From positions 124,001 to 188,000 of the forward strand of contig QPMI01000143.1 in NCBI GenBank assembly GCA_004431415.1: a DNA stretch of 64,000 nucleotides. Direction: 5' to 3'. Shown here one piece after another: positions 9,210-39,224 of the stretch (its first letter is position 1; each line of letters opens with the position of its first letter). Below the pieces are notes generated by a model that did no database searches, had not been told where the DNA came from, and saw nothing but the letters and a program-made list of their open reading frames with translations. This DNA is from Cyanophora paradoxa CCMP329 (lineage: Eukaryota; Plantae; Glaucophyta). A program made the position numbers and the translations under genes.

Positions 9210-9270
9210 GCTTCGCTAAGGCTTGCTTGCTTGCTGCTTACAATAAGCAATCAATTTCTTTAACCTAACC

Positions 9271-13126: not shown

Positions 13127-13388
13127 CAAGATCCGTGCTCCTGCGGAGCACTAAGTACGGCGAAGCCTCGCGGACGCCCTCGCGGCTGTCACAGTAGGCC
13201 TATAGGGCACTCATCGACTGGCCAGCGAACAGCTTTCTGGCTGGAAGCTGGCTAGCTGACGGCCAGTCCAGCTAGCCCTGGCCGGCTAGAGGAATATTAA
13301 TGTGCTGAGGAAATAAAGGGTGGAGCAGATTGAGAGGAGATTAATTATATAATATTGTTGGGAAGGAGGCCCGCGGCCGGGAGGGGCG

Positions 13389-15170
13389 AGGTTCTCGCGG
13401 CCAGGCGCATGCACAGAGCTTGCGCATCACTTAAACAGAATCTCGAATGCATATAGTATCAATGTGCAGGGCTGCGGATCCGGAGGCGAGGGCGCGCGGA
13501 AAGCTGTGCAGGCCCGTTCAGGATCGAATTTTTGCGTCGGCTGGGTCCTCGCGGCCCGGCGCATACGCAAAGCGTGCGGAAGACTTTACCTACATCTCAA
13601 ATGCTTATGCTATTGTTCCGTGCATGCGCCCCGGCGTGGGCGCGCGGAAAGATGTCCGGGCCTGTGCAGGATCGAATTTTTGCCGTCGGCTGGGTTCTCG
13701 TGCTCTTTCATGTCTTCAAAGCTTGCGAAAAGCTTTAAAAAGATCTCAACTGAATATTGTAGCGATGCGCATGCGCGAGGATGCGAGGGCGCGCGGAAAG
13801 ATGTGCAGGTCCGTGAAGGATCGAATTTTCGGGGTCACCTGGATTCTTGCGCCCTGTCGCGTCCTCGGAGGTCTCGATCGAGATCTGAGGAAGGGCGCCG
13901 GGCTGCTGCTAGCCGTGAAGACTGTCATAAGTTGGACTCAGAAGTTCGTCAGTCACAACTAAATCCGTCATCGAATCGTCAATGGCGCGAGATCGGTGAG
14001 ATCTTTTTTTAATTCAAGATCTTGACAGATCTTGCCAATGTGTTCGCGAAATCTTTTTTGTATTCAGGATCTTGGCAAATCTGAGGAAGGGCGCCGGGCT
14101 GCTGAGACGGGATATAACTATAATTATATACTCGAAGATCGATCTGGGGCAGATCTAATTAATAATTATCTGGCAGTGCAGATCTCGAGGGCGCGCGGAA
14201 AGACGTGCGTGTCCGTGAAGGATCGAATTTTCGGGGCCAGCTGGATTGTCGCGCCCTGTCGCGTCGTCGGAGGTCTCGAAAAGCTTAACGAAGATTTCAA
14301 ATTACTATTGTAGGGATGGGGCCGCGCAGGATCGAATTTTTGCCGCCGGCTGGGTTCACGGTTCTCGTGTTCTTTCGCGTCTTCGAAGCTTGTGGAAGGC
14401 TTAGATAAAATCCCAAATGAATATAGTAGCGAGGATCGAATGTTCGGGGTCGGCTGGGTCCTCGCGGCCTGGCACATCTGTAAAGCGTGCGGAACGCTTC
14501 ATCTACATCTCAGATGCTTATGCTATTGTTCCGCGCATGCGCCGCAGCGTGGGCGCGCGGAAAGATCTCCGGGTCCGTGCAGGATCGAATTTTTGCCGTC
14601 GGTTGGGTTCTCGTGGTCTTTCGCGTCTTCGAAGTTTGTGGAAGGCTTTGATAAAATCTCAAATGAATATACCAGCGATGCGGCCTGCGTGAGGACGCGA
14701 GGGCGCGCGGAAAGTTGTTCAGGTCTGAAGAGGATCGAATTTTCGGGTCGGCTGGGTCCTCGCGGCCGGGCGCATGTGCAAACCGTGTGGAAGGCTTCTT
14801 CTACATCTGAAATGCATATGCTATTGTTCCGCGCATGCGCCGCGGCCTGGGCGCGCGGAAAGATGTCCGGGCTGTCCAGGATCGAATTTTCGCTATCGGG
14901 CACCTTCTTGCGCTGTTCCGGCTCCGGAAAGCGGATATCTGGAGTGCGCAGGTCGTGCTATGTCTATGCGCGCCAGTACGCATCGATTGCGCGCGTCGCG
15001 GGACCGGGCGGGACCGGCCGGATCAAATTTTCGGCCGACTCTTGGCACTGCAGCGTCGAGGGCGCTCGAAATCGAGCTTGCGGCGATGTGCTCGCCCTCG
15101 CGCGTCACTCTTTAGCGTTCTGGGGCGTCCCTGGCGCGATTTCGTCGCGGGACCGGGCGGGACCGGGTCC
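13389..15170. repeat. Degenerate ~149-bp-period GC-rich satellite inside the inner virus
   Basis: GGGCGCGCGGAAAG..GGATCGAATTTT core at 13490, 13638, 13787, 14189, 14551, 14701 and 14849; CGTCGCGGGACCGGGCGGGACCGG at ~14994 and ~15143. Confidence 0.88.
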
Positions 15171-15491
15171 CACCTTCTGACTCGGACTGCAGTTGTCGGA
15201 TCTCAAGTACCGGAATTGATCCAGAGGGAAATTCGATTCCGCGCGACGCCCACGGGGGAGCGGTCGTCTTAGGGGAGCCAGGACGCTAAAAATGGATCTA
15301 GAGAGGTCTGTGGGGGTTCGGGCAGCTGTGTAATGTCCATCAATCGCGTCCGTGTCGAGGCAGAATTAATAATTCTGTGTCGAGGAGCTGCGACACGGAA
15401 ATTATCTGGCAGGGGAGATCTCGAGTGGAAAAAAAGGTTAAAAAAGGAATTTCGCTCGGCGGTTTTTGGGTTTGAGAAAGAGGCTTCGCCT

Positions 15492-15527
15492 GATAATACC
15501 TCAGATTATATCTCAGATAATACCTCA
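15492..15527 (+). repeat. 12-bp minisatellite (GATAATACCTCA) x3
   Basis: Same unit and orientation as 13065-13126. Confidence 0.85.
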
Positions 15528-15590
15528 TATATTAATTTTAAATTTGCTGGCTTCTGATTGGTTCATGCCACAGAGTAGGGACTTTTCATC

Positions 15591-15673
15591 AAATGCGCCA
15601 TAAAATGCGCCATAAAATGCGCCATAAAATGCGCCATTAAATGCGCCATTAAATGCGCCATTAAATGCGCCAT
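15591..15673 (+). repeat. 12-bp minisatellite (AAATGCGCCATW) x7
   Basis: Read directly from the sequence. Confidence 0.93.
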
Positions 15674-15917
15674 GAAAACCCGGGGAATAAACCATAGTAG
15701 GGTATATGATCTCACGGTTCAAGTTTCGCTCACGTTTCACCGAAGTTTCGGTAAATCGATTATCGGCATCTTCAAACGCTTGTATCTCATCACCAGATTA
15801 TGATCTCGCAACGTTCTGCATATCGGTTTGAAGCGCTGTTTAAGCTCTACGCAACTGTGCAATCCCCACAGTATTTCAAGCTACCTTATCATACAATATT
15901 CTTCAGAAATCGACCTT

Positions 15918-16676
15918 TTACACACTGATTGTGGTCATTTCTCGCTGAATCCGAGCCATCTGACTCCTTTTAATTGCTTTTCTCTTCACAAACTTCTTAA
16001 AGCCCTTTATATCATCATCAGTGAGTACTGCTCTATCAGTATAGGTCTTGATATCATAACCTTGCAGGCTAGCTATGACAGTTTGGTAATTATAACCCCA
16101 TAGTCTATGCAATTCCTTGTAGGTCTTCTTATCCAAACCACCATTGTACTCATCAAAGGCGCAATTGAACTCTTTCTCGTTCCCAAGAATATTGAAAAAT
16201 ACAACGAACTCCACATTGCGACGAATGGTAGTAGAAATAGAACACAAACGCTGAACATTAAAGATTACCGAGATTGAATAATGTCTTCCACTCGTTACTA
16301 ATTTAGATAACACAGCCGAATTATGCATATCCAAATTTGAACCTATCATGTCATCGAGTATGATAACTAGGTTATTTCGCTTTTCGTTATTCTCAATTCG
16401 TTTCTTTTGCATACTGATCAATCTCAAAACAATGTTATCATCCCACTCTTCATAGATGTTATCGGGATGGGTGATGTCATTGAATTGTCCAGTAAAAGCT
16501 GTTGAACTAAATATAACGATTTGATCGATCTTGTCACGAAGCTCGTAAAGTAAGTATTTTGTGAACATTGTCTTACCTGTATTGGAGCGACCAACATTCA
16601 AAATTCTTGTCGGGATTCGAACCGTCTTACTCGGATCGAACTCCGGAATATCATCAAGATTTACTGTGTTATCCAT
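15918..16676 (-). CDS. A32-like (FtsK/HerA) genome-packaging ATPase, inner element
   Basis: Walker A GRSNTGKT, Walker B LVIILDD, GRHYSISVIFNVQ, IRRN. Confidence 0.93.
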   Translation of the reverse strand: MDNTVNLDDIPEFDPSKTVRIPTRILNVGRSNTGKTMFTKYLLYELRDKIDQIVIFSSTAFTGQFNDITHPDNIYEEWDDNIVLRLISMQKKRIENNEKRNNLVIILDDMIGSNLDMHNSAVLSKLVTSGRHYSISVIFNVQRLCSISTTIRRNVEFVVFFNILGNEKEFNCAFDEYNGGLDKKTYKELHRLWGYNYQTVIASLQGYDIKTYTDRAVLTDDDIKGFKKFVKRKAIKRSQMARIQREMTTISV

Positions 16677-16756
16677 TACAGTAATAAGATAAAAAACAAA
16701 ATAAAGTACACACCTACAAATAATTGCGCTTCCTACACTAACAAAAGAAAAGAACT

Positions 16757-17983
16757 TTAGAAGTTCGAGACTTTCAGGGTAGAGATGTTGTAGCCATTAA
16801 GTACCATAACATTGTGTCGGAGGGCATAGATATCAACCTGAACAGGAGCGGCATCAGTGCATCCGGAAACAGTGAGATCCATGTAACTCGAGCTGCTGTT
16901 GAAGAAATCCTGGTAACCCATAACCGAGTTCCGAAGCGAATCTTTTCCAGACTTGGAAAGAACAATTCCGTAAACATTTCCAGACTCGAATCCGTACGTG
17001 GTATTGCCCACAGTAACACCCTTGTAGTGAGAAGGAATGTGATTGACAGCAGAGAGGAAACCGGAAATGGGTTTGTTAGATATATCCAGGGAGCGATTGT
17101 TGTGGAAGATCTGGAACTGATCAATCTTAACAGCAGATTCATGACCGCAGAAATCCGAGTGAGTGTAGGTGTTAAGTTTGTTCACCTCTCGAACAGTCAT
17201 CAGAATCGAGTGAACCAGACCAGAAACATTAGCGAGTGTAACCTCAACAGATTCACCAGCATCAGCGGTTTTGAGCGCTCGGGTCTTCTTGTGAATGACC
17301 TCTGTGATCGGGATGCGAATGCCACCTTGTTCGTTCGCCATTTTAAGGAGTGTCTCAGCCTCAGCCGAAGCAATGTTTACGAATTGGCAGATCAGAGAGC
17401 AATCCGCAAAGGTTACAGATCCACCAGCCGGAACTTGGACAATCGCAGCATCACGGAAATCAACCTCGATTGTTGGCATATCGGCTAGCGTACATAATGG
17501 GAAATAAGCTTCTTCCCAGAAAGCAGCGGGGATTCTAACGATGTATTCCATTGCTTCATCTGTGCTTTCACGATCTGTCTCTTTGAAGTAACCGAGAGAA
17601 GCATACATGCTGCTCATGGTAGCGTGATCATTATCGACCAGGGCGTTTACAGTGATCCAATCACCAGGGATAATATACTTGAAACCACCATGAACGAAAC
17701 GGACCTCATTAATAAAAGAAGAACCACCATTGGGGAGGGTGCAGGCTACACCACCACCAGTGGCAATCTTGAAATAGAGCGAAACACCAGCAAGGAGTTG
17801 CTTGCGAGGTAGATCAAAGTAAGCGGTATTCTTGAAGCCAAAAGTGTTGCCCCGGGGACGAACTTGCTCGAGGAATGGTTTGTATTTGGGGTTGGTTCCG
17901 ATTTGGAGACCAGGGGAAAGATAAATTTGATCGGAACCGGGAGTTTCGAGGAGTTCCTTCAGGGTAGTTCCAGTGAGTGCCAT
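16757..17983 (-). CDS. Double jelly-roll major capsid protein, inner element
   Basis: 408 aa next to ATPase and penton; the N-terminal pattern FGF..AYFDLPRKQLLAGVSLYF..GGSSFINEVRFVHGG..IPGDWI resembles NCLDV/PLV MCP; YFPLC and C-terminal IYALRHNVM. Confidence 0.8.
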   Translation of the reverse strand: MALTGTTLKELLETPGSDQIYLSPGLQIGTNPKYKPFLEQVRPRGNTFGFKNTAYFDLPRKQLLAGVSLYFKIATGGGVACTLPNGGSSFINEVRFVHGGFKYIIPGDWITVNALVDNDHATMSSMYASLGYFKETDRESTDEAMEYIVRIPAAFWEEAYFPLCTLADMPTIEVDFRDAAIVQVPAGGSVTFADCSLICQFVNIASAEAETLLKMANEQGGIRIPITEVIHKKTRALKTADAGESVEVTLANVSGLVHSILMTVREVNKLNTYTHSDFCGHESAVKIDQFQIFHNNRSLDISNKPISGFLSAVNHIPSHYKGVTVGNTTYGFESGNVYGIVLSKSGKDSLRNSVMGYQDFFNSSSSYMDLTVSGCTDAAPVQVDIYALRHNVMVLNGYNISTLKVSNF

Positions 17984-18035
17984 CTCTTATGTTTAAAATA
18001 CCAAAAGAAATTTTTAAAATGCTTTATTAAACAGA
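17984..18035. promoter_or_regulatory. Putative bidirectional promoter between divergent MCP and penton genes
   Basis: 52-bp AT-rich spacer between head-to-head ATGs; identical in the outer element (29753-29804). Confidence 0.5.
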
Positions 18036-18923
18036 ATGACGCGTTACTATCTCAATATTGATTCCAGGGACCGATCGGATGGAACCCCAACTAATTTCAC
18101 ATACAGACTCCCTTATGCGATCCAAAAGGTCAGAGCCTGTCGAGTAACGAACTTTGAGATGTTTCACAATCTTTACAACCTCTCTGAAGTAGGAACCCTC
18201 ACCACACAAACACTCGATAATGCTGGGAACCCAAAGAATAGAAACAACGAAGTCCTCCGAGGTGCATATACACCGGATTCACTGGTGAATTATCTGATCG
18301 CTCGCATTGGATCCCAGCCCTATAATCAAGCGGGTGGCGGAACTTACACTCGCCATTTCTATGTAACCTATGATCCCACAACATTGCTTCTAAGGTTCAT
18401 GTGTGAGGTTCCATTCTCAATCACTATGAACACTCAACTCTTAGCCAATTTCTGTGGTTTTGAAAATGCTAACACACTGTACCAATCGAGTCCTCTATCA
18501 TCTAATGTCACAGTTGGAGCCTTTACTTATGCTCACTACATTGATAGTGAAATGCCATTAGATCTACTATTTAATTCCTATTTGCTTCTTCATGTTGATC
18601 CACTGAAAGGAAGATATGTGAGCAATAACAAACGAGATAACAATGCTATCGCGAAAATTGAGATTGACCAAACGGTTGGCAGTCTATTAAAATATGATTC
18701 ATCGAATAATTCCATGATCGTTCACGAGCAGAATGGCTTGGTTGAGGTTGAGACTCTAGATGTGAGACTTTCTTACTGGAATGGAGCCACAGCAGACATT
18801 ACTACCGACTGGTCGATGACTCTTGAACTGATTACTGAAGATGATAAAGATCTGACGAAAAAAGCATTGAAGAATGTCATAAAAGAGTTGGAGGGACTCT
18901 ACCTGCCGTTCTCACGGTCATAG
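18036..18923 (+). CDS. Minor capsid (penton) protein, inner element
   Basis: N-terminal LNIDSRDR..PTNFTYRLP..IQKV..LYN and C-terminal LDVRLSYWNG..DWSMTLEL, typical of PLV/NCLDV single jelly-roll pentons. Confidence 0.82.
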   Translation: MTRYYLNIDSRDRSDGTPTNFTYRLPYAIQKVRACRVTNFEMFHNLYNLSEVGTLTTQTLDNAGNPKNRNNEVLRGAYTPDSLVNYLIARIGSQPYNQAGGGTYTRHFYVTYDPTTLLLRFMCEVPFSITMNTQLLANFCGFENANTLYQSSPLSSNVTVGAFTYAHYIDSEMPLDLLFNSYLLLHVDPLKGRYVSNNKRDNNAIAKIEIDQTVGSLLKYDSSNNSMIVHEQNGLVEVETLDVRLSYWNGATADITTDWSMTLELITEDDKDLTKKALKNVIKELEGLYLPFSRS

Positions 18924-18959
18924 GAAATACTGTAGAATAAATTTGTTTCAATATTACAA

Positions 18960-19721
18960 ATGGCTCGCAAGACTCAACCCAAGAATTTCTTAGCCAAACC
19001 AGCCGCTGAAGCGGATGTTGGCAATGGTGAGAATGGAAGGAACTGGTATAAGAAATCGAAAGGACTCGCTGCATACGGAACTGGTGACCTCGAAAAGGAA
19101 GTCCATAAAGAACGAAACCAATTCACCCAAGCCACTACGAAAAACAGTAATGATGATAATGCCCTTGTTGACCAAGTCCCACTGAACCGCATGCCCGGAG
19201 CCAAACGAGGAATCAAGAAAGGACAGTTCAAATCATCCACAAAGGACAAGGTTGCCTCATCATCGACACTGCTGAAACTGCTTGATGGTGGTGAGCGACT
19301 CTACTCAACCTATTCCGAGAAAGACCATCGCAACCGCTACTTTATTCGTTCAACCACTGGTGGACTGAAATCTGTAACATATCAGTATGCTAAGAGTCTT
19401 GTTGATGGTATTGCAGCAGAGACCAAAAACGAAAACAAGATCAAGGAACAGCCAATCACAAAGGAAAAGGTTGAGAAGAAACCAGAAGTAACCCATGAAG
19501 TTATTCCCGAACCTGTTCATGTGGCAAAAGACTCACCTACAGAATTGATTGCAAAGACCATTGAGTATCAAGACTCCAACAAAACGGATTTGCCGGTTCT
19601 CAATAAGTCGATCCTTCGGGTTGCCACTTCGCAGGCTGATCCAGTCAACTCGATTCCAAATGCTGCCCCAATGGTCTCTGGATTCGCCAAGCTTGGTATA
19701 AGACCCGGTTATCGCCGTTAA
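18960..19721 (+). CDS. Lys-rich hypothetical protein (possible virion core protein)
   Basis: 253-aa ORF with a homolog at 28043-28816; function inferred from composition and position only. Confidence 0.7.
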   Translation: MARKTQPKNFLAKPAAEADVGNGENGRNWYKKSKGLAAYGTGDLEKEVHKERNQFTQATTKNSNDDNALVDQVPLNRMPGAKRGIKKGQFKSSTKDKVASSSTLLKLLDGGERLYSTYSEKDHRNRYFIRSTTGGLKSVTYQYAKSLVDGIAAETKNENKIKEQPITKEKVEKKPEVTHEVIPEPVHVAKDSPTELIAKTIEYQDSNKTDLPVLNKSILRVATSQADPVNSIPNAAPMVSGFAKLGIRPGYRR

Positions 19722-19754
19722 GGATCAATCTGAATAATATAATTTCTCAAACAT

Positions 19755-20010
19755 TGTTAGCGCTACGTAACCAATCCTATCCCGTAGGCTCAAAACTTCT
19801 TCATTTTTATGGAGGCGTTGTAGAGCGAAGTGAAATATCCATAGGTAAATCACTTTAATCACCTGTTCTACCGGGTTCAGTGGTAGAAACTTGCAGCCGA
19901 CAAGTGAACCTTCTGGGTATCGGTGGCTTTATCATTTTTCCAGCATCTTCTTTCGTACTGGATGCTCTGCAATCGGGACCAAAATTTGACAGGAGTTTAT
20001 TCGCTATATA
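19755..20010 (+). ncRNA. Candidate structured RNA or cis-element
   Basis: Run of hairpins with nested closing stems; conserved in the outer element (27755-28005) with changes concentrated in loops. Confidence 0.45.
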
Positions 20011-20070
20011 CAGACAGAAAAACTACTTAAAGATTTCTTAACATATATTAAGAGAGTAGAAAAGGACAAC

Positions 20071-20328
20071 ATGCCAATCAGTGAGGCTCAGAAGCGTGCT
20101 ACTTATCGTTATCGTAAAACTGAAAAAGGTCAGGAATATTTGAAAAAGTACAATGCCAGATTTGCAAAGCAAATGCGTGACTTATACCATACTGATGAGT
20201 GTTACAGAGCCATGAAGATCGTTGAGAGTTCCCAGCGTCTCTATGCTTCCAATGCAGTCTGCTTTGTGAAGTATCTCTATGGTGTCCCGTATTCTAACCG
20301 TGGTCGCAAATCGAAATATCTCTGTTAA
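20071..20328 (+). CDS. Small basic helical protein (SEAQKRA..Y type)
   Basis: 85 aa; the second copy at 27437-27694 differs by 2 conservative residues plus synonymous changes. Confidence 0.8.
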   Translation: MPISEAQKRATYRYRKTEKGQEYLKKYNARFAKQMRDLYHTDECYRAMKIVESSQRLYASNAVCFVKYLYGVPYSNRGRKSKYLC

Positions 20329-20333
20329 TCGTT

Positions 20334-20360
20334 TTTCTCAGCGCGATCTGCTCTGAGAAA
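20334..20360 (+). terminator. Hairpin just downstream of the 85-aa ORF stop (possible 3'-end signal)
   Basis: TTTCTCAG..CTGAGAAA stem, conserved in the outer copy (~27405-27431). Confidence 0.35.
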
Positions 20361-20569
20361 CCCGTGGGAAACGCGCTGGAACCACAAATATAATCATTCT
20401 GTTATTTTTAGAGTTCGATGATCGAGCCAACCCTTTGTTATTTTTATGAATGCCCTCGACTAAATTTATTTTGTTGGAGACTTTTGGTTTTGTCGGTAAA
20501 ATTTGACGCGAGTATAAAAGTATTTAAAGAAAACTTTTGTAGGTATATATTAATAGAGTGAACAAAGAA

Positions 20570-23500
20570 ATGCCTCGACCAAGTAATCGAATTTCGAAAA
20601 ATTTGCAGGATGAGATTCTTGGCTACTACATGCAAGCAAAAGTAGAAGACAAATTGACCCGAGAGCAGGATATCTATTTCTTGAGAGAATTTACTTTCAA
20701 AGCAATTAGAATTCCAAAGTTGATTGATATCAGAGATACACTGAGAGGTATCGTAGAGCCTCGTTTGTATCGCAAGCAGGAGAAGAAGGAGAAGAGGGCT
20801 GAGAGAGCCGCTAAGAATGTTGAGAAGCAAAACAAGAAAGCGGAGCAAGCGAGAGAGCGGAAGCGCTTGACTCCTTTCCAGCAGATGATTGCTAACCTCC
20901 GTGAGTTTGTTGAAAACTCACCTGGAAACATGGTCACCCTGAATGTGAGACTCTTCCGTGAGTTGCAAGAGGGAGAACAAGCCCCTGCAAATGCAAACAG
21001 GGTCACTGAGAATGGTGTGACCTACATTGAATCGAAGAGGCTTCGGAACAATCGCCCCTTTGGTATCCAGTGTACCAAGGCAGCTTTTCTGAATGCTCTC
21101 GGTCTGGTTCAATCCACCTTCAATACGTTCCCATGTGTTGAGGGGACTGTCATTGCTGAATTTATTGCAGCAGTTATTGAGTTTAACTCGACCAATCAAG
21201 ATTTCCGCTACCTAAAACTAATTGAGCAAGATACCTACCCCGATATTATGACAATTGAAAGAGTCATCACGACAGATAATGAAGAATACATCCCAAGAAA
21301 TGAACAAGTCCTCAGAGACAATACAAACGCTCCAATGATTATTTCGAATTTCATTAAAAACGAAGGGAACCCCCAAGCCACCACATTCAAGGAAATGTTC
21401 TTGAAAGGTGATTCATTCAAGGTTGGGAAGTGTGTTTTCGATGTCCTCATCAAATGGTTTGGAGGAGCGTTTGAGAAGGCTAAGACCAAAGGGAAATACA
21501 AGCGAATCGATTGGTCTTACAACGGACTCTTTAAGATGGTGAATGGGCGAGACCCTGTTGAAGGAGATGATTGGGGCATTTCTTTCAAGTCCATTTCGGA
21601 GAAGGTTCTTGACCCACTGCGCCTAGGCATGGTTACAATTGGAAAGGACGACAGAACCCCTGTCCCTGAACTGACTTTCCTGCCCAAGACCAGGAACACA
21701 CACTTGACCCCTTCTGTTGCATATGTGAAGATTGAGAATGGTCACATGTATTTGTTAAATCACAATATTAAGGCTCTCACACAGTCCTTCAATGGCTCCA
21801 AGCCAAAAGATACCAATGTTCCACTCAGTTCTCGTTACAAGATTATAAAGCAAAGAAGGTTCAAGGAGTTTGCCACAAATCCCGATGACATTCTGAGAAT
21901 TGTCAGGTCTGACAATCCAAAGAACCAATCGAGCATTCGAATCTGCTATGGTGGTTCACTGGATGAACTACTCAGAGAGTTCATTGTGGTGCATAATTAT
22001 CAGGTCCAACCTGGGTTCTCCCAAATCGGAAAGGCAACCCATATTCGTTTCACTATTGACGATAAGGATGTTGTCGTGACCCCACCTGGTAACGATACAG
22101 ATGTGGAAACAGCTTTCGAGATTAGCTTCAAGAATGCTGAGTACAGAGATAAATTCGAGAAACTAAATCTGGATATGTATAGGTCTCTAATCAACACTTC
22201 CAACAAGAGTACTTACAATGAGCAAACCATAAATGCATTCAAGAATGGAGTGCAGACTGCCCTTCGTGGTCTCTTTGATGTGGATGAGGAGACCTTTGAT
22301 GAAATTCGCTATAACACAGATATTTACGAGTTCGATATGTGCAAAGCATACCCTTACATTGTAGCCTTGATGATCAAATTCGTTCCTGTTCTCAGCAAGT
22401 TCGATGTCTTCAAGAGTGTGACAATCACAGATGCAGAGCAAATCGAGGAATACAGCTTCTATTACGTGAAACTGGACGACAAATACTTTTTCAAAGCCAA
22501 AGACAAGAACGGAAAGGAGTACGAAGCAAACACCTACAACAGATACAAGAGGATGATCATTGATTCCAAGTACAATGTCGTTCCTGGTTTGGTTCTCAAA
22601 AAGCATTTCGAGGATTTCAAGGATGACATCTCCATCAAAGCGGTTCTGCGACCTTACAAACTCATTCCCAACCTTGCAGGCAACACAGTTGCTCGAATCT
22701 TAGATAGCGACCTCGATCCTGTTGATAAGAAGCAGATCTTGGTGAGTGCAATTGGGCAAACTGGAAAGCAACGAAATAGCAGAGTGAAAACCACCATTTT
22801 CCACAACAGAGACGATGCGATCGAGTTCCAGAAACAGAACGGAGGGGAGGTTAAAATTTACCTCTTTGGTGAGACTCTTGCCACTTATGAGGAGACAGAG
22901 TTCGTTCTGTGTGAGGAAGAGATGACCGAACCCCATATCTACTATGTCAATCAGGTAGCAGAAAAGCAGCTCATTGATGGCTTCATGCCATTGTACACTA
23001 CCCTCTTGTCAATTATGAGGATGTGTATGTATGAGAAGTGTGTCGAACTCGCTAAACAGCAGATCCGACCACTCGCTTTGAACACCGATTGTGTTTATGG
23101 GATCGCTTATGAACCCATTGCCCCAGTGTCATTCGATCGCAATGCCTTTGAGAATATTGGAAAATTCAGTGTGAAATGCTGCCCCAATTTTTCTAAAAAG
23201 TTTTCAGGTGAGAAGAAAGACCTCGAGGCAAAACGAATTCGTTACGGAAAGTTTGAGAGAGCGACTGACTTTGTGAAAATCGAGAACTACAGTTATACCA
23301 AACACTCTGTGGTTGATGAGTATGACACAACCGCGATTTGTGATTTGCTGGCTACACAAAAACGATGGGTTCTTCTCGGATCAGTTCCAGGAGTTGGAAA
23401 GACTCACATGACAGTTGAATATGGGAAGCGTTTCAAAAATCCCCTCTATATTGTTCCGACCAACAAGCGAGTGAAGGAAATGAAAGAGCAAGGATTGAAA

Positions 23501-24657
23501 AATGTGAAGACAATCTATGATGCCCTTCATCTCAAAATCGATGAGTCGAACATGGATGAAATCGTAGGAGGGAATGCATCTGGTTTGGTAGAATTTGATT
23601 GCATTGTTATTGATGAGATCTGTCAGTTTAAGATTGGAGAACTGGCAGCCCTGGACCACATCATGAATGAGCAGTTCCCAGATAAGGTATACATTGCCAC
23701 AGGTGACCCGTATCAGAACCCACCCATTCAGGATATGAGTGTTGATCAAGATGAGTATTACCTTGATATCCTCCATCGCCTGTTCCCCAACGAATTGTTA
23801 CTCCAAGTGAACAAGCGCCATGAGACTGAGGAAGATCGCAGAAAGGTTGAGCAAATTCGAATTGATTTATTCGAGAAAGGTTTGAGTGTAAGTGAGGTCC
23901 TAGCAAAGTACGGGTTCAAGGTTGTGGACGAATTGGCAAAGACAGATAAAGGCATTGTGTATACAAACCGCAAGGGTGCAGAGGTGAACCTAGCCCTTCA
24001 CAAAATGAACTACGGGATAATGTTTCCATTTATGCTGGCGGGATCAAAGTTGTTGCAAAGACTCGTATTGCAAAGGGTGGGAAGATAGTTCATAATGGAT
24101 TTGTCTACAAGATTGTCAAGCTCTCAAAGGACAGTTTCATTATTGCTGACATTGCCAACAAGAAGGATGAGATTGTTCTCAGCAGGGATGCAGTCAAACA
24201 TTTCGCCCTGGCTTACGCAAACACCTGCCATGTTGTTCAAGGTGATACGATTCGCTGCAAAGGGAACAGGGTAGTCGTGTTCGAAACTGGGGCGCCATTT
24301 GTTTCAAAGAAGTGGCTATATGTTGCTCTCACTCGAACCACAAGGCTGGATGATGTTGTTATTTACCATGATAATTTCGAAATGGCTCACTGGAAAGTGT
24401 GGAAAAGAGAGAATAACGAGAAGATTTCGACTTACAAGGATCAGGACCGAGCAGCAAACAGACAATTCGATGAGCATGATTACATCACATGGGATTGGAT
24501 CAAGCAGCGATATGGGAAGCAGTATGGGCATTGCCTGCGATGCTACAATGCCATGGACTTTGAAGATATTTCGGTAGATCGAATTAATAATGCTGTGGCT
24601 CACATTACCAAAAATTGTTTCCTCTCTCATATTAAGTGTAACTGTGCCGCCCAATAA
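20570..24657 (+). CDS. Divergent PolB - SF1 helicase - HNH-like fusion (~1360 aa; 1-nt frameshift at 24014-24016)
   Basis: PolB-like motifs FDMCKAYP (A), KQILVSAIG (B) and LNTDCVY (C); helicase GSVPGVGKT, IVIDE, TGDPYQNPP and QVNKRH; after the frameshift LAYANTCHVVQG and WLYVALTR; C-terminal CLRC..SVDRINN..H..NC..SHIKCN. Likely start ATG at 20570. Confidence 0.82.
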
Positions 24658-25718
24658 TGGATAGTGTATTATCATTCAAAAAGTATAGGCAGAAACTGAT
24701 TAATGAAAAAGTGAGTTTTGATGAAAAAGAGTTGAAAAAGAAGTTCAAAAACTCAGAACTCCAGCAAATTTACAAGAAACCAAGGAAACCCAAATCGTTT
24801 CTTCGCATAGTGGCAAAGCCTAGATCGTTTCAAATCGATATAACATATTTGAGAGGGTTTCAGACTGCCAACAATGGCATTTTCAAAATGCTTAGTTTCG
24901 TAGACATACTTAGTCGCAAAGGATTTGTTTATCCTTTTAAAAACAGCAGTGAGATCCCGAGCATTTTAAATAGGTTCAAGCAAGAAGCAGGCAAAGTTAA
25001 TGCTCTCTCTGGGGATAATGAGTTTTCCCAGGCAGTATACCGAAATTGGTGCAGTGAACATGGTGTAATGCTATACACAGATGTGGCAAAGGATGACCAC
25101 ATCACAGTAGGAGATAAACTGGGGATAATTGATAGGTTCACTAGGACTTTCAAACAGTATCTCAGAAAATCGATGACAGCAAAGGGAACCACGAAATGGA
25201 TCGATCTACTTAGTGATGTAATTGACTTGTATAATAGCAGTCCCCATTCTGCATTGAAAAATGACTCTCCAAATGCAGTGTATACAAATGAAGATAAACA
25301 GTTATTTATTTACATGAGGGATACTGTTCACAACAATCGTGTAAAGGAGGCTGATACTAATCAAGTGAAACCAGGAGACACAGTTCGAGTTTTGCAACCA
25401 AAGGGATTGTTTGAAAAAGAAGGTGCGCAATTCAGTCAGAAGGTCTACACTGTTGCAAAGGCTGATAGGAATCGTTTCAAAGTGCTTGAAGATAATGATG
25501 GTGAGGAAACAAAAGAAGTGAAGAGGAGATTTAAGAAACAAGAATTGCAAAAGGTGAATAAAGATGATATCATTAAGATACCATCACAAAAACGGATTCA
25601 GCAGGTTAATAAAACGAATAAAGTGAATCGATTGGTAGCAAAAGAAGGCATAAAACCCAATCGGAGTAATGTAATTCGGAGGAGATACAATTTGAGAAGT
25701 GGTTTAACGAAACGCTAA
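24657..25718 (+). CDS. Retroviral-like (rve) integrase, inner element
   Basis: 353 aa; FQIDITY, LSGDNEF, GIIDRFTRTFK, YNSSPHSAL; start overlaps the upstream stop (TAATG). Confidence 0.9.
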   Translation: MDSVLSFKKYRQKLINEKVSFDEKELKKKFKNSELQQIYKKPRKPKSFLRIVAKPRSFQIDITYLRGFQTANNGIFKMLSFVDILSRKGFVYPFKNSSEIPSILNRFKQEAGKVNALSGDNEFSQAVYRNWCSEHGVMLYTDVAKDDHITVGDKLGIIDRFTRTFKQYLRKSMTAKGTTKWIDLLSDVIDLYNSSPHSALKNDSPNAVYTNEDKQLFIYMRDTVHNNRVKEADTNQVKPGDTVRVLQPKGLFEKEGAQFSQKVYTVAKADRNRFKVLEDNDGEETKEVKRRFKKQELQKVNKDDIIKIPSQKRIQQVNKTNKVNRLVAKEGIKPNRSNVIRRRYNLRSGLTKR

Positions 25719-25719
25719 A

Positions 25720-26123
25720 TCATGGGAGACACGGCGGATGAAAAGGATATAACTTCGATTAAATATAATTAATCGAGATTATGATATAACTTCGATAAAT
25801 AAGATTTAAGATATAACTTCGATTAATTCGATTTTTGTTACTGAGGCTTACTGAGATTTAGTGAGATTTGGAATTGGGTTACTGTGAATGGTTTGTTTTT
25901 CTTGGGAATTGTTTTGGAGACACGGCGCATAAAAAAGATATAACTTCGATAAGATATAATTAATCGAGATTATGATATAACTTCGATTAATTCAATGTTT
26001 CTTACTGAGGCTTACTGAGATTTACTGATATTCAAGATTGGGTTACTGGGAATGGTTTGTTTTCTGATTTGTTTTTGATTTTTTCGCGGGTATTTTTTTG
26101 GAGACACGGCGCAGTGCTGAGCT
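25720..26123 (-). repeat. Right TIR of the inner element
   Basis: Reverse complement of 12215-12618; begins just after the integrase stop codon. Confidence 0.95.
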
Positions 26124-27195
26124 CTCGTTTCTTGTTATCAAGGAAGTAGACATTGATAGGTCTACCAATCATCTTCGAAGCTAGATCGTAAACCCTAGAG
26201 TCATTCTTGACTGGGAACTCAAAGCGACTCCAATCGAATTCCTTATCCCACTTATTGTATCGTTTCAATTCAGATCTGTGGTTTCGAATGACATCATTGT
26301 GATGCAAGCCAATCTTAACAGCATGTCGGAAACATTCTTGGTCTTCATTCTTAGGATTGATAACCGCCTTTCTCTTTTCAATCTCTTCTGGAAGAGGGAT
26401 GTAAGAACTTCCTGTCAGAGGTGTGTAAGATAGAATTTGTAGGGTTACTTCAAGAATATTGTGAATCTCTGCGTACTCGATGGCTGTCATGATTTCATGC
26501 AGATCATCCACAGCTTGCCTGACGATATCCGTTAGGTCATTTGCTGGAAGAGCTAGGTAAAAATGCATTGAGCTTGGGTATCTGGTAGCATATTGGTACT
26601 CTCCTGTCCACCTTCCATTTTGCTTCTCCTTGTATTTGTAATTCGCCTTCACTTTGAACTGGAACTTAATTCCATTGTGTCTGTCCAAAGCCTCTTGAAG
26701 TCTTCTATGGAGATCATCCCATCCTATCTTCTCAGTGATAAACCGATGGATTGTGTTAATTAGGTTTTTCTTAGCGTTTTTCCATGTAAGCTCCTCGACT
26801 AGGTGATTCATGGCATTCATTACCTGAACCTGGTTGGCTTCCTGCTTTGACTTCCATTTTTGAACCCTCTCTTGCTTCTTGGACTTCTTCTGCTGATTTC
26901 TTTTGTATTTCTGCACTTCTTTGGTCTTTGCTTGCCGTTTGGCAACATTCTTAGCGGCTCTCTCAGCCCTCTTCTCCTTCTTCTCCTGCTTGCGATACAA
27001 ACGAGGTTCTACAATACCTCTCAGTGTATCTCTGATATCAATCAACTTCGGAATTCTAATTGCTTTGAAAGTGAATTCTCTCAAGAAATAGATATCCTGC
27101 TCTCGGGTTAATTTGTCTTCTACTTTTGCTTGCATGTAGTAGCCAAGAATCTCATCCTGCAAATTCTTCGAAATTCGATTACTTGGTCGAGGCAT
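26124..27195 (-). pseudogene. N-terminal portion of the outer pPolB (terminal-protein and protease-like region)
   Basis: YTPLTGSSYIPLP..KAVINPKNEDQECF..FEFPV..INVY is the Polinton pPolB N-terminal signature; it joins in frame to 12208 when the insertion and one TSD are removed. Confidence 0.9.
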
Positions 27196-27436
27196 TTCTT
27201 TGTTCACTCTATTAATATATACCTACAAAAGTTTTCTTTAAATACTTTTATACTCGCGTCAAATTTTACCGGCAAAACCAAAAGTCTCCAACAAAATATA
27301 TTTAGTCGAGGGCATTCATAAAAATAACAAAGGGTTGGCTCGATCATCGAACTCTAAAAATAACAGAAAGATTTTATTTGTGGTTCCAGCGCGGTTCCCA
27401 CGGGTTTCTCAGAGCAGATCGCGCTGAGAAAAACGA

Positions 27437-27694
27437 TTAACAGAGATATTTCGATTTGCGACCACGGTTAGAATACGGGACACCATAGAGATACTTCACA
27501 AAGCAGACTGCATTGGAAGCATAGAGACGCTGGGAACTCTCAACGATTCTCATGGCTCTGTAACACTCATCAGTATGGTATAAATCACGCATTTGCTTCG
27601 CGAATTTCGCATTATACTTTTTTAAATATTCCTGACCTTTTTCAGTTTTACGATAACGGTAAGTAGCACGCTTCTGAGCCTCACTGATTGGCAT
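27437..27694 (-). CDS. Small basic helical protein, outer copy
   Basis: Near-identical to 20071-20328. Confidence 0.8.
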   Translation of the reverse strand: MPISEAQKRATYRYRKTEKGQEYLKKYNAKFAKQMRDLYHTDECYRAMRIVESSQRLYASNAVCFVKYLYGVPYSNRGRKSKYLC

Positions 27695-27754
27695 GTTGTC
27701 CTTTTCTACTCTCTTAATATATGTTAAGAAATCTTTAAGTAGTTTTTCTGTCTG

Positions 27755-28005
27755 TATATAGCGATTAAACTCCTGTCAAATTTTGGTCCCAATCGCAGAG
27801 CATCCAGTTCTGAAAGAAGATGCTGGAAAAATGATAAAGCCACCGAAACCAAATAGGCTCACTTGTCGGCTGCAAGTTTCTACCACTGAACCCGGTAGAA
27901 CAGGTGATTAAAGTGATATCTGTGGATAATTCACTTCGCTCTACAACGCCTCCATAAAAATGAAGAAGTTTTGAGCCTACGGGATAAGATTGGTTACGTA
28001 GCGCT
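27755..28005 (-). ncRNA. Candidate structured RNA or cis-element, outer copy
   Basis: Homolog of 19755-20010 retaining the same stems. Confidence 0.42.
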
Positions 28006-28042
28006 ACCTATGTTTGAGAAATTATATTATTCAAATTGATCC

Positions 28043-28816
28043 TTAACGGCGATATCCGGGTCTAATACCGAGCTTGGCAAACCCTGAGACCATTGGGGCA
28101 GCATTTGGAATCGAGTTGACTGGATCAGCCTGCGAAGTGGCAACCCGAAGGATCGATTTATTGAGGACCGGCAAATCCGTTTTGTTGGACTCTTGATAAT
28201 CGATGGTCTTTGCAATCAATTCGGCTGGCGATTCTTTTGCAACATGAACAGGTTCAGGGATGACTTCATGGGTTACTTCTGGTTTCTTCTCAACCTTTTC
28301 CTTTGTGATTGGCTGTTCCTTGATCCTGTTTTCGTTTTTGGTCTCTGCTGCGATACCATCAACAAGACTCTTAGCATACTGGTATGTCACAGATTTCAGT
28401 CCACCAGTGGTTGAACGAATAAAGTAGCGGTTGCGATGGTCTTTCTCGGAATAGGTTGAGTAGAGTCGCTCACCACCATCAAGCAGTTTCAGCAGTGTTG
28501 ATGATGAGGCAACCTTGTCCTTTGTCGATGATTTGAACTGTCCTTTCTTGATTCCTCGTTTGGCTCCAGGCATGCGGTTCAGTGGGACTTGATCAACCAG
28601 GGCATTATCATCATTTGAGTTTGAGTAAGCGCAATTGTGTGAGCATTCATGGTCTGGTGAACATTTTTATCGAGATCACCAGTTCCGTATGCAGCGAGTC
28701 CTTTCGATTTCATATGCAGCGGTTCCTTTTGATTTCTTAAACTGTTTCCGTTCTGGTTCCGCTTGCTCAACTGGTTTGGCTAAGAAATTCTTTGGCTGGG
28801 TCTTTCGAGTTGCCAT
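28043..28816 (-). pseudogene. Lys-rich protein, outer copy, 5' part frameshifted
   Basis: ATG at 28816 (MATRKTQPKNFLAKP); a short internal duplication (KKSKG.AAY twice) and frame changes precede the intact 176-aa C-terminal part. Confidence 0.72.
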
Positions 28817-28852
28817 TTGTAATATCGAGACAAATTTATTCTACAGTATTTC

Positions 28853-29752
28853 CTATGACCGTGAGAACGGCAAGTAGAGTCCCTCCAACTCTTTTATGAC
28901 ATTCTTCAATGCTTTCTTTGTCAGATCTTTATCATCTTCCGTAATGAGTTCAAGTGTCATCGACCAGTCAGTGGTAATATCCGTTTCAGCACCATTCCAA
29001 TATGTAAGACGAATTTTTAGCGTTTCAACTTCCACCAAACCATTTTGCTCATGCAATATCATGGAATTATTCGATGAATCGTATTTTAGTAGACTGCCTA
29101 CCGTTTGGTCAATCTCAATTTTCGCAAGGGCTTTATCATCGCTGGTGTTCTTGCTTACATAGTTGCCTTTGAGTGGGTCAACATGAAGAAGGATGTAAGA
29201 ATTGAACAGAAGATCAAGCGGTATAACACTGTCAATGTAGTAATTATAAGTATTTGCTCCAACTGTTACTGGCGAATCGAGCAGGGCAGAAGCATAACCA
29301 TTTTCAGAACTGTCAGGTCTGCGATCTGGGAAACCAAGGAAGTTCGCTAAGATCCGACTTCCAAAGGTGAGGGTAAATGTTGCATCGCACATGAACCTTA
29401 GAAACATGGTAACAGGATCATATGTAACGTAGAAATGGCGAGTATAGGTAGTTCCTGCTGCACCATACACCTGTGAAGCTAATTTGGCATTTAGAAGATT
29501 CACCAAACTATCCGAAGTATATGTCCCTTTTGAAATAGTGTTATTCTTAGTTTTAATTACATCCCCAGCATCATAGGTTCCTGTAATCAAACTTCCATTT
29601 TCGCTGAGATTGTAAATGTTATTGAACATCTCAAAGTTAGTCACTCTGCAGGCTCTCACATTTTGGATTGCATGGGGAATTTTATAAGTGAAGTTCGTTG
29701 GGGTTCCATCATCTCGGTCCCTGGAATCAATATTAAGGTAATGACGCGTCAT
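28853..29752 (-). CDS. Minor capsid (penton) protein, outer element
   Basis: 299 aa; LNIDSRDR motif; homolog of 18036-18923. Confidence 0.82.
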   Translation of the reverse strand: MTRHYLNIDSRDRDDGTPTNFTYKIPHAIQNVRACRVTNFEMFNNIYNLSENGSLITGTYDAGDVIKTKNNTISKGTYTSDSLVNLLNAKLASQVYGAAGTTYTRHFYVTYDPVTMFLRFMCDATFTLTFGSRILANFLGFPDRRPDSSENGYASALLDSPVTVGANTYNYYIDSVIPLDLLFNSYILLHVDPLKGNYVSKNTSDDKALAKIEIDQTVGSLLKYDSSNNSMILHEQNGLVEVETLKIRLTYWNGAETDITTDWSMTLELITEDDKDLTKKALKNVIKELEGLYLPFSRS

Positions 29753-29804
29753 TCTGTTTAATAAAGCATTTTAAAAATTTCTTTTGGTATTTTAAACATA
29801 AGAG

Positions 29805-31031
29805 ATGGCACTCACTGGAACTACCCTTAAGGAACTCCTCGTTACTCCCGGTTCTGATCAAATTTATCTTTCCCCTGGTCTCCAAATCGGAACCAACCCC
29901 AAGTACAAACCATTCCTCGAGCAAGTTCGTCCCCGAGGCAATACTTTTGGCTTTAAGAATACCGCTTACTTCGATCTACCTCGCAAACAACTCCTTGCTG
30001 GTGTTTCACTCTATTTCAAGATTGCCACTGGTGGTGGTGTAGCCTGCACCCTCCCTAATGGTGGTTCTTCCTTTATTAATGAGGTCCGCTTTGTTCATGG
30101 TGGTTTCAAGTATATCATCCCTGGTGACTGGATTACTGTTAACGCTCTGATTGATAATGATCACGCTACCATGAGCAGCATGTATGCTTCTCTCGGTTAC
30201 TTCAAAGAGACAGATCGTGAAAGCACAGATGAAGCAATGGAATACATTGTTAAAATCCCCGCTGCTTTCTGGGATGATGCTTACTTCCCACTATGCACAC
30301 TGGCGGATATGCCAACAATTGAGGTTGATTTCCGTGATGCTGGGATAGTCAAAGTTCCTGCTGGTGGATCTGTTACCTTTGCGGATTGCTCTCTGATCTG
30401 CCAATTCGTAAACATCGCTTCGGCTGAGGCTGAGACACTTTTGAAAATGGCAAATGAACAAGGTGGCATTCGCATTCCGATCACAGAGGTCATCCACAAG
30501 AAGACACGAGCGCTCAAAACCGCTGATGCTGGTGAATCGGTTGAGGTTACACTCGCTAATGTTTCCGGACTGGTTCATTCAATTCTCATGACTGTTCGAG
30601 AGGTGAACAAACTAAATACCTACACTCACTCGGATTTCTGTGGTCATGTATCGGATGTTAAGATCGATCAGTTCCAGATCTTCCACAACAATCGCTCCCT
30701 CGATATCTCCAACAAACCCATTTCTGGTTTCCTCTCGGCTATCAATCACATTCCTTCTCATTACAAGGGTGTTACTGTTGGCAATACTACTTATGGATTC
30801 GAGAATGGAAATATTTACGGAATCGTTCTTTCCAAATCTGGAAAAGATTCGCTTCGGAACAGTGTTATGGGTTACCAGGATTTCTTCAACAGCAGTTCCA
30901 GTTACATGGATCTCACTGTTTCGGGATGCACTGATGCTGCTCCTGTTCAGGTTGATATCTATGCCCTACGACACAATGTTATGGTCCTCAATGGCTACAA
31001 CATTTCTACCCTGAAAGTCTCGAACTTCTAA
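29805..31031 (+). CDS. Double jelly-roll major capsid protein, outer element
   Basis: 408 aa; about a dozen substitutions relative to the inner MCP. Confidence 0.8.
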   Translation: MALTGTTLKELLVTPGSDQIYLSPGLQIGTNPKYKPFLEQVRPRGNTFGFKNTAYFDLPRKQLLAGVSLYFKIATGGGVACTLPNGGSSFINEVRFVHGGFKYIIPGDWITVNALIDNDHATMSSMYASLGYFKETDRESTDEAMEYIVKIPAAFWDDAYFPLCTLADMPTIEVDFRDAGIVKVPAGGSVTFADCSLICQFVNIASAEAETLLKMANEQGGIRIPITEVIHKKTRALKTADAGESVEVTLANVSGLVHSILMTVREVNKLNTYTHSDFCGHVSDVKIDQFQIFHNNRSLDISNKPISGFLSAINHIPSHYKGVTVGNTTYGFENGNIYGIVLSKSGKDSLRNSVMGYQDFFNSSSSYMDLTVSGCTDAAPVQVDIYALRHNVMVLNGYNISTLKVSNF

Positions 31032-31177
31032 GCGCGGTTTCGCCCGCGCGCAACGACCGAAGGAAGTAGATTCTTTTCTTTCGTTAGAGTAGGAAGCGCA
31101 AAAGTAGTAGGGTCGGCATGACAAGCATGCCTTGCATGCGCTAAGGGGTTTATTTTGTTTTTTATCTTATTACTGTA

Positions 31178-31945
31178 ATGGATAACACAGGAATGGATAT
31201 TGATTTGAACGACATCCCAGAGTTTGAGCCTGCAAGAACAGTAAAGTTAAGCACGCGTTTTTTACTTTGCGGGCGCAGCAACTCGGGAAAAACAACCTAC
31301 TGCAAATATCTACTTTATGAACTGAGGGATAAGATCGATCAGATTGTAGTTTTTAGTTCTACTGCATTTACAGGTCAGTTCAGAGATATAACGCATCCTG
31401 ATAATATCTATGAGGAATGGGACGATAATGTAGTAGTGAAACTCATTAGCATGCAAAAGAAACGAATTGAAAATAATGAAAAACGCAACAATCTTGTTAT
31501 TATACTTGATGATATGATCGGTTCCAATTTAGATATGCATAATTCGGCTGTGTTATCTAAACTGATCACGACAGCCCGTCATTATTCGATTACAGTAATT
31601 ATTAATACTCAACGTTTATGCTCTATTTCTACTACAATTCGTCGAAATGTTGAGTTCGTAGTATTTTTCAATATTCTTGGGAATGAGAAGGAGTTTAACT
31701 GCGCTTATGATGAGTATAATGGGGGTCTTGATAAAAAGACCTACAAAGAGTTACATAAAATGTGGGGTTACAATTACCAAACAGTCATAACTGGATTGCA
31801 AGGGTATGATATCAAAGTATACACAGACCGCGCAATATTAACAGATGATGATATGAAAGGCTTTAAGAAGTTTGTTAAGAGACGAGCGATAAAAAAGAGA
31901 GAATCAATACGAATTAGTAATGAACCCACAACAATAACGGTTTAG
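31178..31945 (+). CDS. A32-like packaging ATPase, outer element
   Basis: GRSNSGKT, LVIILDD, ARHYSITVIINTQ. Confidence 0.93.
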   Translation: MDNTGMDIDLNDIPEFEPARTVKLSTRFLLCGRSNSGKTTYCKYLLYELRDKIDQIVVFSSTAFTGQFRDITHPDNIYEEWDDNVVVKLISMQKKRIENNEKRNNLVIILDDMIGSNLDMHNSAVLSKLITTARHYSITVIINTQRLCSISTTIRRNVEFVVFFNILGNEKEFNCAYDEYNGGLDKKTYKELHKMWGYNYQTVITGLQGYDIKVYTDRAILTDDDMKGFKKFVKRRAIKKRESIRISNEPTTITV

Positions 31946-31966
31946 ATAACAAGGAATGTTTGAAAC

Positions 31967-32260
31967 TCATTTCGTGTCCATTGCGTTTTTCAAAATCAAT
32001 TTCCTACGTAATTTACAGCGTGTATGGTTTACATCGTGTCTTTTTTCTAATATTTGTGAGTATTGGTGTGTGTTCATAGTTTCCATGGTAGATAAGAAGC
32101 CTTTCATAAGATTTGTTTTATATTTGCTTGGTAGTTTGTTAACATTTAAACCAGCACTATTAGCGGTTTTCTCAATCAATTTGCTTAATTGTTGCTCATC
32201 TGGAATTATGGGCATATCTTGAAGAATCTCTTCAACATCTTCTGGTATTATGGTGGTCAT
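31967..32260 (-). CDS. Hypothetical protein unique to the outer element
   Basis: 97-aa ATG ORF in AT-rich DNA filling the gap between TIR and ATPase; no recognised domain. Confidence 0.55.
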   Translation of the reverse strand: MTTIIPEDVEEILQDMPIIPDEQQLSKLIEKTANSAGLNVNKLPSKYKTNLMKGFLSTMETMNTHQYSQILEKRHDVNHTRCKLRRKLILKNAMDTK

Positions 32261-32404
32261 TTACAGATCGATATGGTTAATTTAAAAACAGTCGTCATTT
32301 TTTTTGGATCGGTCAAAATTTGATTACGTTTAAAATTGATATAACTTCAATTGAATATAACTAATCGAGATATTGATATAACTTCGATTAAATATAATTA
32401 ATCG

Positions 32405-32574
32405 AGATTATGATATAACTTCGATAAATAAGATTAAAGATATAACTTCGATTAAATATAATTAATCGAGATTATGATATAACTTCGATAAATAAGATTT
32501 AAGATATAACTTCGATTAATTGTGATTGAGAGACTGAGAATTTGTTGAATTCTGATTGGTAAAGACTGAGAATC
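32405..32574 (-). repeat. Right terminal inverted repeat of the outer element
   Basis: Reverse complement of 7284-7453; abrupt return to GC-rich DNA after ~32580. Confidence 0.92.

Positions 32575-39193: not shown

Positions 39194-39224
<31 letters not shown>

Follow-up and report, generated by a model that had tools for sequence, protein, structure and literature searches.

Two nested elements with a common gene order

The stretch analysed in this study comprises 64,000 nucleotides of contig QPMI01000143.1 from Cyanophora paradoxa CCMP329 and is referred to as the window, all coordinates being window positions. Self-comparison of the window revealed two AT-rich virus-like elements against a GC-rich eukaryotic background. 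The outer, Polinton-like element A (7284..32574, minus strand) is bounded by an identical 170-bp inverted repeat (7284-7453/32405-32574) and is split by the inner element B (12215..26123, plus strand), which sits in reverse orientation within the replicase (Pol) ORF of A. Both Pol ORFs start with the same 84-residue leader, which stops at a sharp junction, and past this junction the two replicases are dissimilar. Here, we describe this junction together with contigs from public sequencing runs, in which both of its versions recur in multi-copy elements.

Element B ends in 404-bp terminal inverted repeats (TIRs) that are 99.3% alike, with AG..CT termini, and is flanked by the 6-bp target-site duplication (TSD) CTCGTT, which fits rve activity as described in PMC12220804. 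The left end of element A is uncertain; a clean TSD is absent, and only a 5-bp asymmetric candidate was found.

As the initial annotation had noted, both elements have the same gene order; they lie in opposite orientations, with the packaging ATPase and the major capsid protein (MCP) genes pointing one way, followed by genes for a putative penton, a Lys-rich protein, an 85-residue protein, Pol and an integrase pointing the other way. The A32-like ATPase of B (15918..16676, −; Pfam Pox_A32, E 1e-15) shares 207 of 252 residues with that of A (31178..31945, +). The MCPs (B, 16757..17983, −; A, 29805..31031, +), likely double jelly-roll proteins judging by the ESM Atlas features of the B protein, are identical at 396 of 408 positions, and the exact count of 12 differences bears out the "about a dozen" given before. 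Against Capsid_N/Capsid_NCLDV clusters, the B MCP reached an ESM Atlas feature score of 0.98 at a recognition of 1848, under the tool's mark of 2300. The putative penton or minor capsid genes (B, 18036..18923, +; A, 28853..29752, −) owe their name to position and to the initial annotation, as Pfam and PHROG scans gave no match; 215 of 294 residues are identical, with only 50-62% nucleotide identity in the centre. Thus, the proposal that both elements build the same virion holds, in this pair, for the MCP, but not for the penton and the ATPase. Finally, the basic 85-residue proteins (B, 20071..20328, +; A, 27437-27694, −) are identical at 83 positions, and Pfam and PHROG scans of this protein were blank.

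The shared leader and the replicases behind it

The leader spans 20570..20822 (+) in B and 26943..27195 (−) in A, as delimited by alignment. All 84 residues are identical, and the nucleotide sequences are 97.6% alike: the six differences among 253 positions are without exception third-position and synonymous (P ~2e-4). Identity per 100 alignment columns was 97-100 up to 20822/26943 and ~40 past that point, precisely as the initial annotation had placed the end of an identical peptide of about 84 residues. BLASTP of B Pol past residue 99 against the N-terminal 357 and C-terminal 823 residues of A Pol, a comparison that excluded the 157-residue middle piece, detected no similarity (best E 0.27).

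The body of the A replicase is interrupted by element B. Its N-terminal part (26124..26942, −) holds a charged helix, a predicted alpha/beta domain resembling a terminal protein (TP) and the start of a vOTU-like domain; secondary structure was predicted here at a pLDDT below 50, the Cys288 motif was assigned by eye, and Pfam and PHROG scans of this part were without match. The C-terminal part (9271..12214, −), which has one frame break near 11742 in the window copy, is a canonical DNA polymerase B of the protein-primed type (pPolB) with an exonuclease, an EndoVII insert and the motifs DANNLYG, KLMNN and TDTDS. Indeed, Pfam recognised DNA_pol_B_2 (PF03175, E 6e-18) and Endonuclease_7 (PF02945, E 5e-5), the former having no match in B.

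In the body of the B replicase (20823..24657, +), the Pfam matches were confined to a superfamily 1 (SF1)-type helicase (AAA_19, AAA_30 and Viral_helicase1). AAA_19 scored above the cut-off at residues 928-1053 (E 1.5e-7), with Walker A and Walker B motifs seen by eye at 941 and 1013. Further upstream, PolB-like palm motifs were recognised by eye at residues 588, 721 and 837, and a likely TP/vOTU region at Cys288 and His392, while the C-terminus has the string CxxC..DR..N..H...N. By eye, we take the Cys/His pair to be vOTU-like and this string to be HNH-like. Pfam, PHROG and PDB scans for the palm and TP/vOTU regions of B produced sub-threshold matches only, no HNH profile was matched, and the vOTU-like region showed no similarity to the corresponding region of A. 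The ESM Atlas neighbours of B Pol are viral SF1 fusions of 1000-1200 residues, one cluster being 84% HNH (score 0.85). Accordingly, of the two earlier assignments, canonical pPolB for A was upheld by Pfam, as was the helicase of B, while PolB and HNH in B stand on inspection by eye. Judged by its motifs, B Pol resembles replicases of the Tlr1 type, which combine a palm with an SF1 helicase and an HNH domain. The window copy has a frame break near 24010 that is missing from the contigs of all three runs of this organism that were compared at this point.

Sequence searches returned no homolog of the leader, neither among 1.84 billion representatives nor in further sequence collections, and Pfam, PHROG and PDB scans gave sub-threshold matches only, such as a faint one to the H-NS N-terminus (E 0.09). 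AlphaFold models were made from single sequences, with no alignment; the B Pol model had a pLDDT of 32.5 and that of the A N-terminus one of 45.6, both being mostly below 50. The B model placed helices at residues 10-25, 31-44 and 53-98 with low confidence. In the A model, the same two short helices (10-25 and 31-44) are followed by a long one at 50-155, which crosses the junction at a pLDDT of ~80-88 between residues 71 and 110; this long helix is the only confident part of the leader models. A fold search with the A N-terminus model gave no match at E ≤ 0.001. The published TP core consists of a four-stranded beta-sheet and two helices, with the linking Ser/Tyr before the last strand (PRD1-like D1). 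The leader departs from this fold, being predicted as all-helical in both low-confidence models, and in A no strand is predicted before residue 178. Because an all-helical prediction contrasts with an alpha/beta TP whose strands begin only at residue 178, the leader is probably not the TP core and was rejected as such. The suggestion that it is the part of the terminal protein that matches the packaging machinery was not supported either, the leader lying upstream of the predicted TP core, the ATPases being only 82% alike and contig depth hinting at further copies that have the capsid arm but not this leader. In pPolB-S1H (pPolB-SF1 helicase) proteins, a "highly variable N-terminal domain" precedes the TP, according to PMC11161782, and the models suggest that the leader probably corresponds to such a domain. 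It is basic and likely a nuclear-targeting or DNA-binding extension.

Directly before Pol lies a promoter-like motif, recognised post hoc, of the form AAAATTTGAC..TTAAAGA..TATATTA (20498..20569, +; A copy from 27267, −). It is also found ahead of the 85-residue gene (19981, +; 27784, −), and none of 11 further gene starts looked at has this three-part motif. The early promoter of mimiviruses, AAAATTGA, has been reported ahead of the PgVV Pol (10.1101/2022.07.28.501842). The resemblance of the first part of the motif to this promoter hints at a giant-virus helper, and is offered as a lead only.

To the left of the junction, divergence at fourfold sites rises from 0.04 in the leader to 0.06 in the 85-residue gene, 0.15 in the C-terminus of the Lys-rich gene, 0.18 in the MCP gene, 0.52 in the penton gene and 0.57 in the ATPase gene. 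The shared capsid arm is a patchwork of divergence. To the right, it reaches 0.68 in the rve-type integrases (B, 24657..25718, +; A, 8127..9209, −), which gave Pfam rve_3 matches below the cut-off (E 0.0025 and 0.03, respectively). Homology had been described as resuming at the integrase. It is indeed present there, but only 223 of 352 residues (63%) and 67% of nucleotides are identical, with no high-identity tract. The integrase was therefore rejected as the right-hand border of the cassette, given this low identity, a DUF5710 gene that is found in A only, and outer termini that differ between A and B. There is no sharp breakpoint on the right. With integrases so unlike and distinct outer termini, it is probably the entire right arm that was exchanged. 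In related viruses, PolB has been linked with the DDE integrase and the ends (10.64898/2026.10.13.758929; 10.1101/2023.10.16.562556), the latter source proposing end modules.

Although the outer termini differ, a 13-mer array is common to both elements: TCGAAGTTATATC is present 23 times, each copy falling within a terminal zone of one or the other (7343-7704, 12352-12592, 25746-25986 and 32375-32515). The DUF5710 gene (7768-8130; Pfam E 3e-15) lies near one end of A and a 97-residue ORF (31967-32260) near the other; no counterpart of either was seen in B.

Both junctions in public sequencing runs

At least half of the B junction region is contained in 19 of 24 listed public runs, all from the window's own organism (organism A). 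Contigs from five of the 24 runs were compared with the window, and the statements below apply to the contigs listed for them. Run X20, from organism B, contributed nothing but short contigs, with a depth of 2-3, and was set aside.

The empty site of element B is represented by contigs that join 12208 to 26124, with six letters shared, and thus carry an un-nested A Pol. This joint was present in three of three organism-A runs (depth 595, 306 and 30 in X1, X5 and X14), where B Pol had depths of ~2015, 915 and 81. As a reference, the host flank contig had a depth of 106, 36 and 68 in X1, X5 and X2, X14 being too shallow. In the same three runs, the depth was 595, 306 and 289-342 for A-type Pol and 2391, 1367 and 1303 for the leader contig, which amounts to ~4-8x and ~19-38x the flank, respectively. 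The junctions themselves are bridged as well. Record 18 of X2 (26522-27004, depth 289), which differs from the window at 21 sites, spans the A junction with 61 + 421 bases, and record 5 of X1 (20780-21372, depth 1570) spans the B junction; the un-nested A contig of X5 reaches 28 bases into the leader, too short for a bridge. Furthermore, leader site 27166 splits the depth into 1779+568, 1052+342 and 1013+335, in agreement with the depths of B-type and A-type Pol, B-type being ~3x A-type. Such a split would follow if almost every copy of either type had the leader. Together these findings support a replicase exchange that is real and family-wide. Both Pol types carry the leader and the breakpoint in un-nested copies at multi-copy depth, and the occurrence of un-nested A-type Pol in all three runs contradicts a leader restricted to the nested locus. 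Of the exchangeable cassette proposed in the initial annotation, the exchange itself is thus retained, while a reusable swap point is not supported, one junction being enough to explain all data.

Just upstream of the leader (27374-27407), depth was 3303, 1577, 140 and 1947 against 2391, 1367, 87 and 1303 in the leader of the same four runs, the excess being weak in X5. This hints at a third family with the same capsid arm but without this leader. In all four runs, contigs skip or replace the 85-residue gene (27442-27703; depth 1108, 490, 45 and 681), and in one of the four a contig skips or replaces part of the leader (26994-27188; depth 424).

The N-terminus of the window A Pol (26124-26943) is ~3% from the dominant A allele of the runs, with 17 of 20 listed sites in third position, and the 11200-12208 stretch of A Pol differs at only two to three sites. 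A distant N-terminus beside a near-identical stretch marks the window A copy as itself recombinant.

A GC-rich host repeat of 2.8 kb (12966..15740), which is not viral, is present in this B copy only; contig joints bypass it in three of three organism-A runs. It has a 149-bp tandem unit, 12-bp flanking repeats and very high depth (40,000-100,000 in X1), and gave no Rfam match. Elsewhere in the window, a GC-rich host repeat has three copies that are 83-94% alike (37745-40650, 52132-55311 and 59702-62661), with no Pfam match in the ORFs scanned. The sole host gene recognised is a UTP6 (U3 snoRNP) fragment at 166-1233 (−), of 76% GC, in line with a GC-rich eukaryotic host.

Origin of the junction and its place among known systems

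Directly observed were one junction, two amplified families, integrase-style transposition of B with its 6-bp duplication, and a mosaic capsid arm. The explanation that we favour, at a probability of roughly 70%, is that two multi-copy families of integrated Polinton-like viruses (PLVs) share the capsid arm, a predicted early promoter and the leader but have unrelated replicases, owing to a single in-frame non-homologous recombination between a left arm and a foreign right arm. One crossover would have fused the left arm of one virus with the replicase body, integrase and ends of another. The junction may have been tolerated because of its position upstream of the TP-vOTU-palm unit, in purine-rich DNA that encodes a long Lys/Glu/Arg helix; 19 of the 20 bases just upstream of the junction are purines, and in both models it lies within a predicted continuous helix. 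The incoming enzyme would have retained its own priming domain while acquiring a working promoter, a start codon and the basic leader. Homologous recombination through the shared arm would then reshuffle capsid alleles across both replicases, so that the junction would mark where homology ends, at a fixed position, without being a programmed site. As to direction, it is somewhat more probable than the reverse that the Tlr1-type replicase of B is the newcomer. B contigs are zero to one site per 1.4-2.4 kb off the window, the leader is present in both of two A alleles that diverge by ~3%, and every run copy reads as B at three of the six leader sites. The preference is slight because contigs drop rare variants.

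Several points weigh against this explanation. Contig depth does not equal copy number, and the contigs are unitigs without long-range linkage between capsid allele and Pol type. The runs may stem from the window's own strain, the flank contig having no mismatches, rather than from independent populations. Both models are single-sequence predictions, mostly with a pLDDT below 50, and the TP, vOTU, palm and HNH of B were recognised by eye. Of the six synonymous differences in the leader, three set the window A allele apart from every run copy, so that selection on the leader is demonstrated for the A lineage and not for its role in B. Finally, for the leader, for B Pol and for the MCP alike, sequence searches returned no homolog, which leaves no outgroup to root the direction and no tree. 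Searches with A Pol and with an integrase alignment likewise returned no homologs. An ATPase alignment retrieved a single, uninformative locus at 23% identity on a distant Polinton-like IMG/VR contig (L001), where we noted by eye a replicase of primase-SF3-like type together with a number of GIY-YIG-like ORFs (11881-14124).

Conceivably, the leader could be a required adaptor that binds either the packaging ATPase or the 13-mer common to the two kinds of TIR, behind which every incoming replicase would have to fuse, with codon 84 as a recurrent swap point. Its perfect conservation through synonymous changes only, the confinement of the 23 copies of TCGAAGTTATATC to terminal zones whose outer termini otherwise differ, and the faint H-NS match would fit this idea. 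However, there are two replicases and one junction, no third polymerase with the leader was found among the contigs, the ATPases differ at 18% of positions, and the excess depth upstream of the leader, together with the joint skipping the 85-residue gene, hints at capsid-arm copies without a leader. We consider such an adaptor unlikely. A shade less likely is displacement of a homing type, in which the HNH of B would cut A genomes during co-replication and repair would copy the B arm with the leader as left homology. The C-terminus of B Pol is HNH-like, the A enzyme contains an EndoVII insert, B-type depth exceeds A-type depth about threefold, and homing-assisted replicase conversion has been proposed in 10.64898/2026.10.13.758929. 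Yet this process requires leader homology to exist beforehand, and so accounts for spread but not for origin; a homology tract on the right is lacking, with no high-identity segment in the integrases; and the nested B, which lies 820 bp from the junction, came by its integrase, while cutting by the HNH is a prediction. A combination of both, in which a portable adaptor reads the 13-mer array, codon 84 is a universal socket and one virus has interchangeable engines, the HNH engine displacing the other by homing, appears as doubtful as homing by itself. Leaders that are 6 kb apart, inverted and nearly identical could also have arisen at this locus only, through assembly collapse or by conversion of one nested inverted copy by the other. 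This was rejected as very improbable, because un-nested multi-copy contigs of both types bridge the junctions and all six differences are synonymous, which is unexpected under collapse or neutral decay after conversion.

The locus is an instance of a known process, as replicase swaps, including those of pPolB versus PolB-SF1, are described as common in these viruses. Switches between pPolB and polB-SF1 modules are described as common across all PLV groups (10.64898/2026.06.19.733378), Tetraselmis PLVs combine a common structural arm with S1H, pPolB or D5 replicases (10.1101/2025.10.09.676808), and polisuviruses display replicase mosaicism of whole genes as well as at the sub-genic level, one contig having identical morphogenic genes and distinct replicases (10.64898/2026.10.13.758929). 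Module switching in polisuviruses is alike in keeping the same capsid module with different replicases (10.64898/2026.10.13.758929; 10.64898/2026.06.19.733378; 10.1101/2023.10.16.562556; 10.1101/2025.10.09.676808), but their sub-genic swaps join a polymerase-primase to helicase domains, or involve 26% identity over 312 residues. Nematode Polintons with pPolB1 or pPolB2 (10.1101/2023.08.22.554363) are, as here, related elements of one species with unrelated polymerases and an inferred recent swap. There, however, both enzymes are full pPolBs and the polymerase alone moved, whereas here integrase and ends differ as well and the junction is inside the ORF; the main text of that paper does not use the words junction, breakpoint or boundary. 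The Cafeteria virophages EMALE01 and EMALE02 (PMC8547959) are also co-resident endogenous elements with a sharp edge of homology between replication and capsid halves, but they have the replication end in common, and it was the capsid module, of mavirus type, that was replaced.

As read by eye except for the helicase, B Pol appears to have the domain order of the Tlr1-like helicases, or pPolB-S1H fusions, that occur in PLVs, transpovirons and Tlr1 (PMC5499653; PMC11161782): a variable N-terminus, the TP position, vOTU-like Cys/His, palm, SF1 helicase and an HNH-like C-terminus. Such proteins have a palm with motifs A, B and an altered C, TPR1/TPR2, no exonuclease and a terminal HNH or GIY-YIG nuclease. 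In B, too, the first Asp of palm motif C appears replaced, and Tlr1 likewise pairs its replicase with an rve integrase and capsid genes. Unlike the described members, B Pol has no sequence match to them, and its "variable" N-terminus is identical to that of a canonical pPolB. The reverse fusion (PMC12721341) and SF1-GIY-YIG fusions (PMC12220804) have been described.

With respect to Polintons/Mavericks, A has the protein-primed PolB, for which B gave no match, and both integrases are sub-cut-off rve_3 matches. AG..CT ends are the rule for Polintons; B has such ends with long TIRs and a TSD within the 5-6 bp range, while A does not have them cleanly. No capsid maturation cysteine protease was found among the 14 element proteins scanned, nor an unassigned ORF of fitting size, at the limited sensitivity of profiles here. 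Of the PLV hallmarks, the ATPase was recognised by Pfam, the MCP by its Atlas features at low recognition, and the penton was without match; searches retrieved no MCP homolog that would place it in a named cluster such as Aquinto, GKS or the NCLDV-like Zora/Zephyr. The C-terminal SF1 helicase of Tlr1-like pPolB-S1H proteins is present in B as AAA_19.

The novelty lies in an exact in-frame junction within a gene, in a lineage that has no close relatives in the databases and with both parental types amplified in the same genome. No report of a near-identical short leader retained at an intragenic junction was found in the literature searched, which comprised the available main texts, excluding supplements and figures. 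PLV replicase turnover has mostly been inferred from discordant trees, and this locus presents the join at base resolution. It suggests a rule for viable swaps, which would be made in frame, within a charged helix and upstream of the priming domain, with promoter and start codon kept. In addition, the two replicases lend themselves to the question of whether palm-helicase proteins of the Tlr1 type have polymerase activity, a point left open in PMC11161782.

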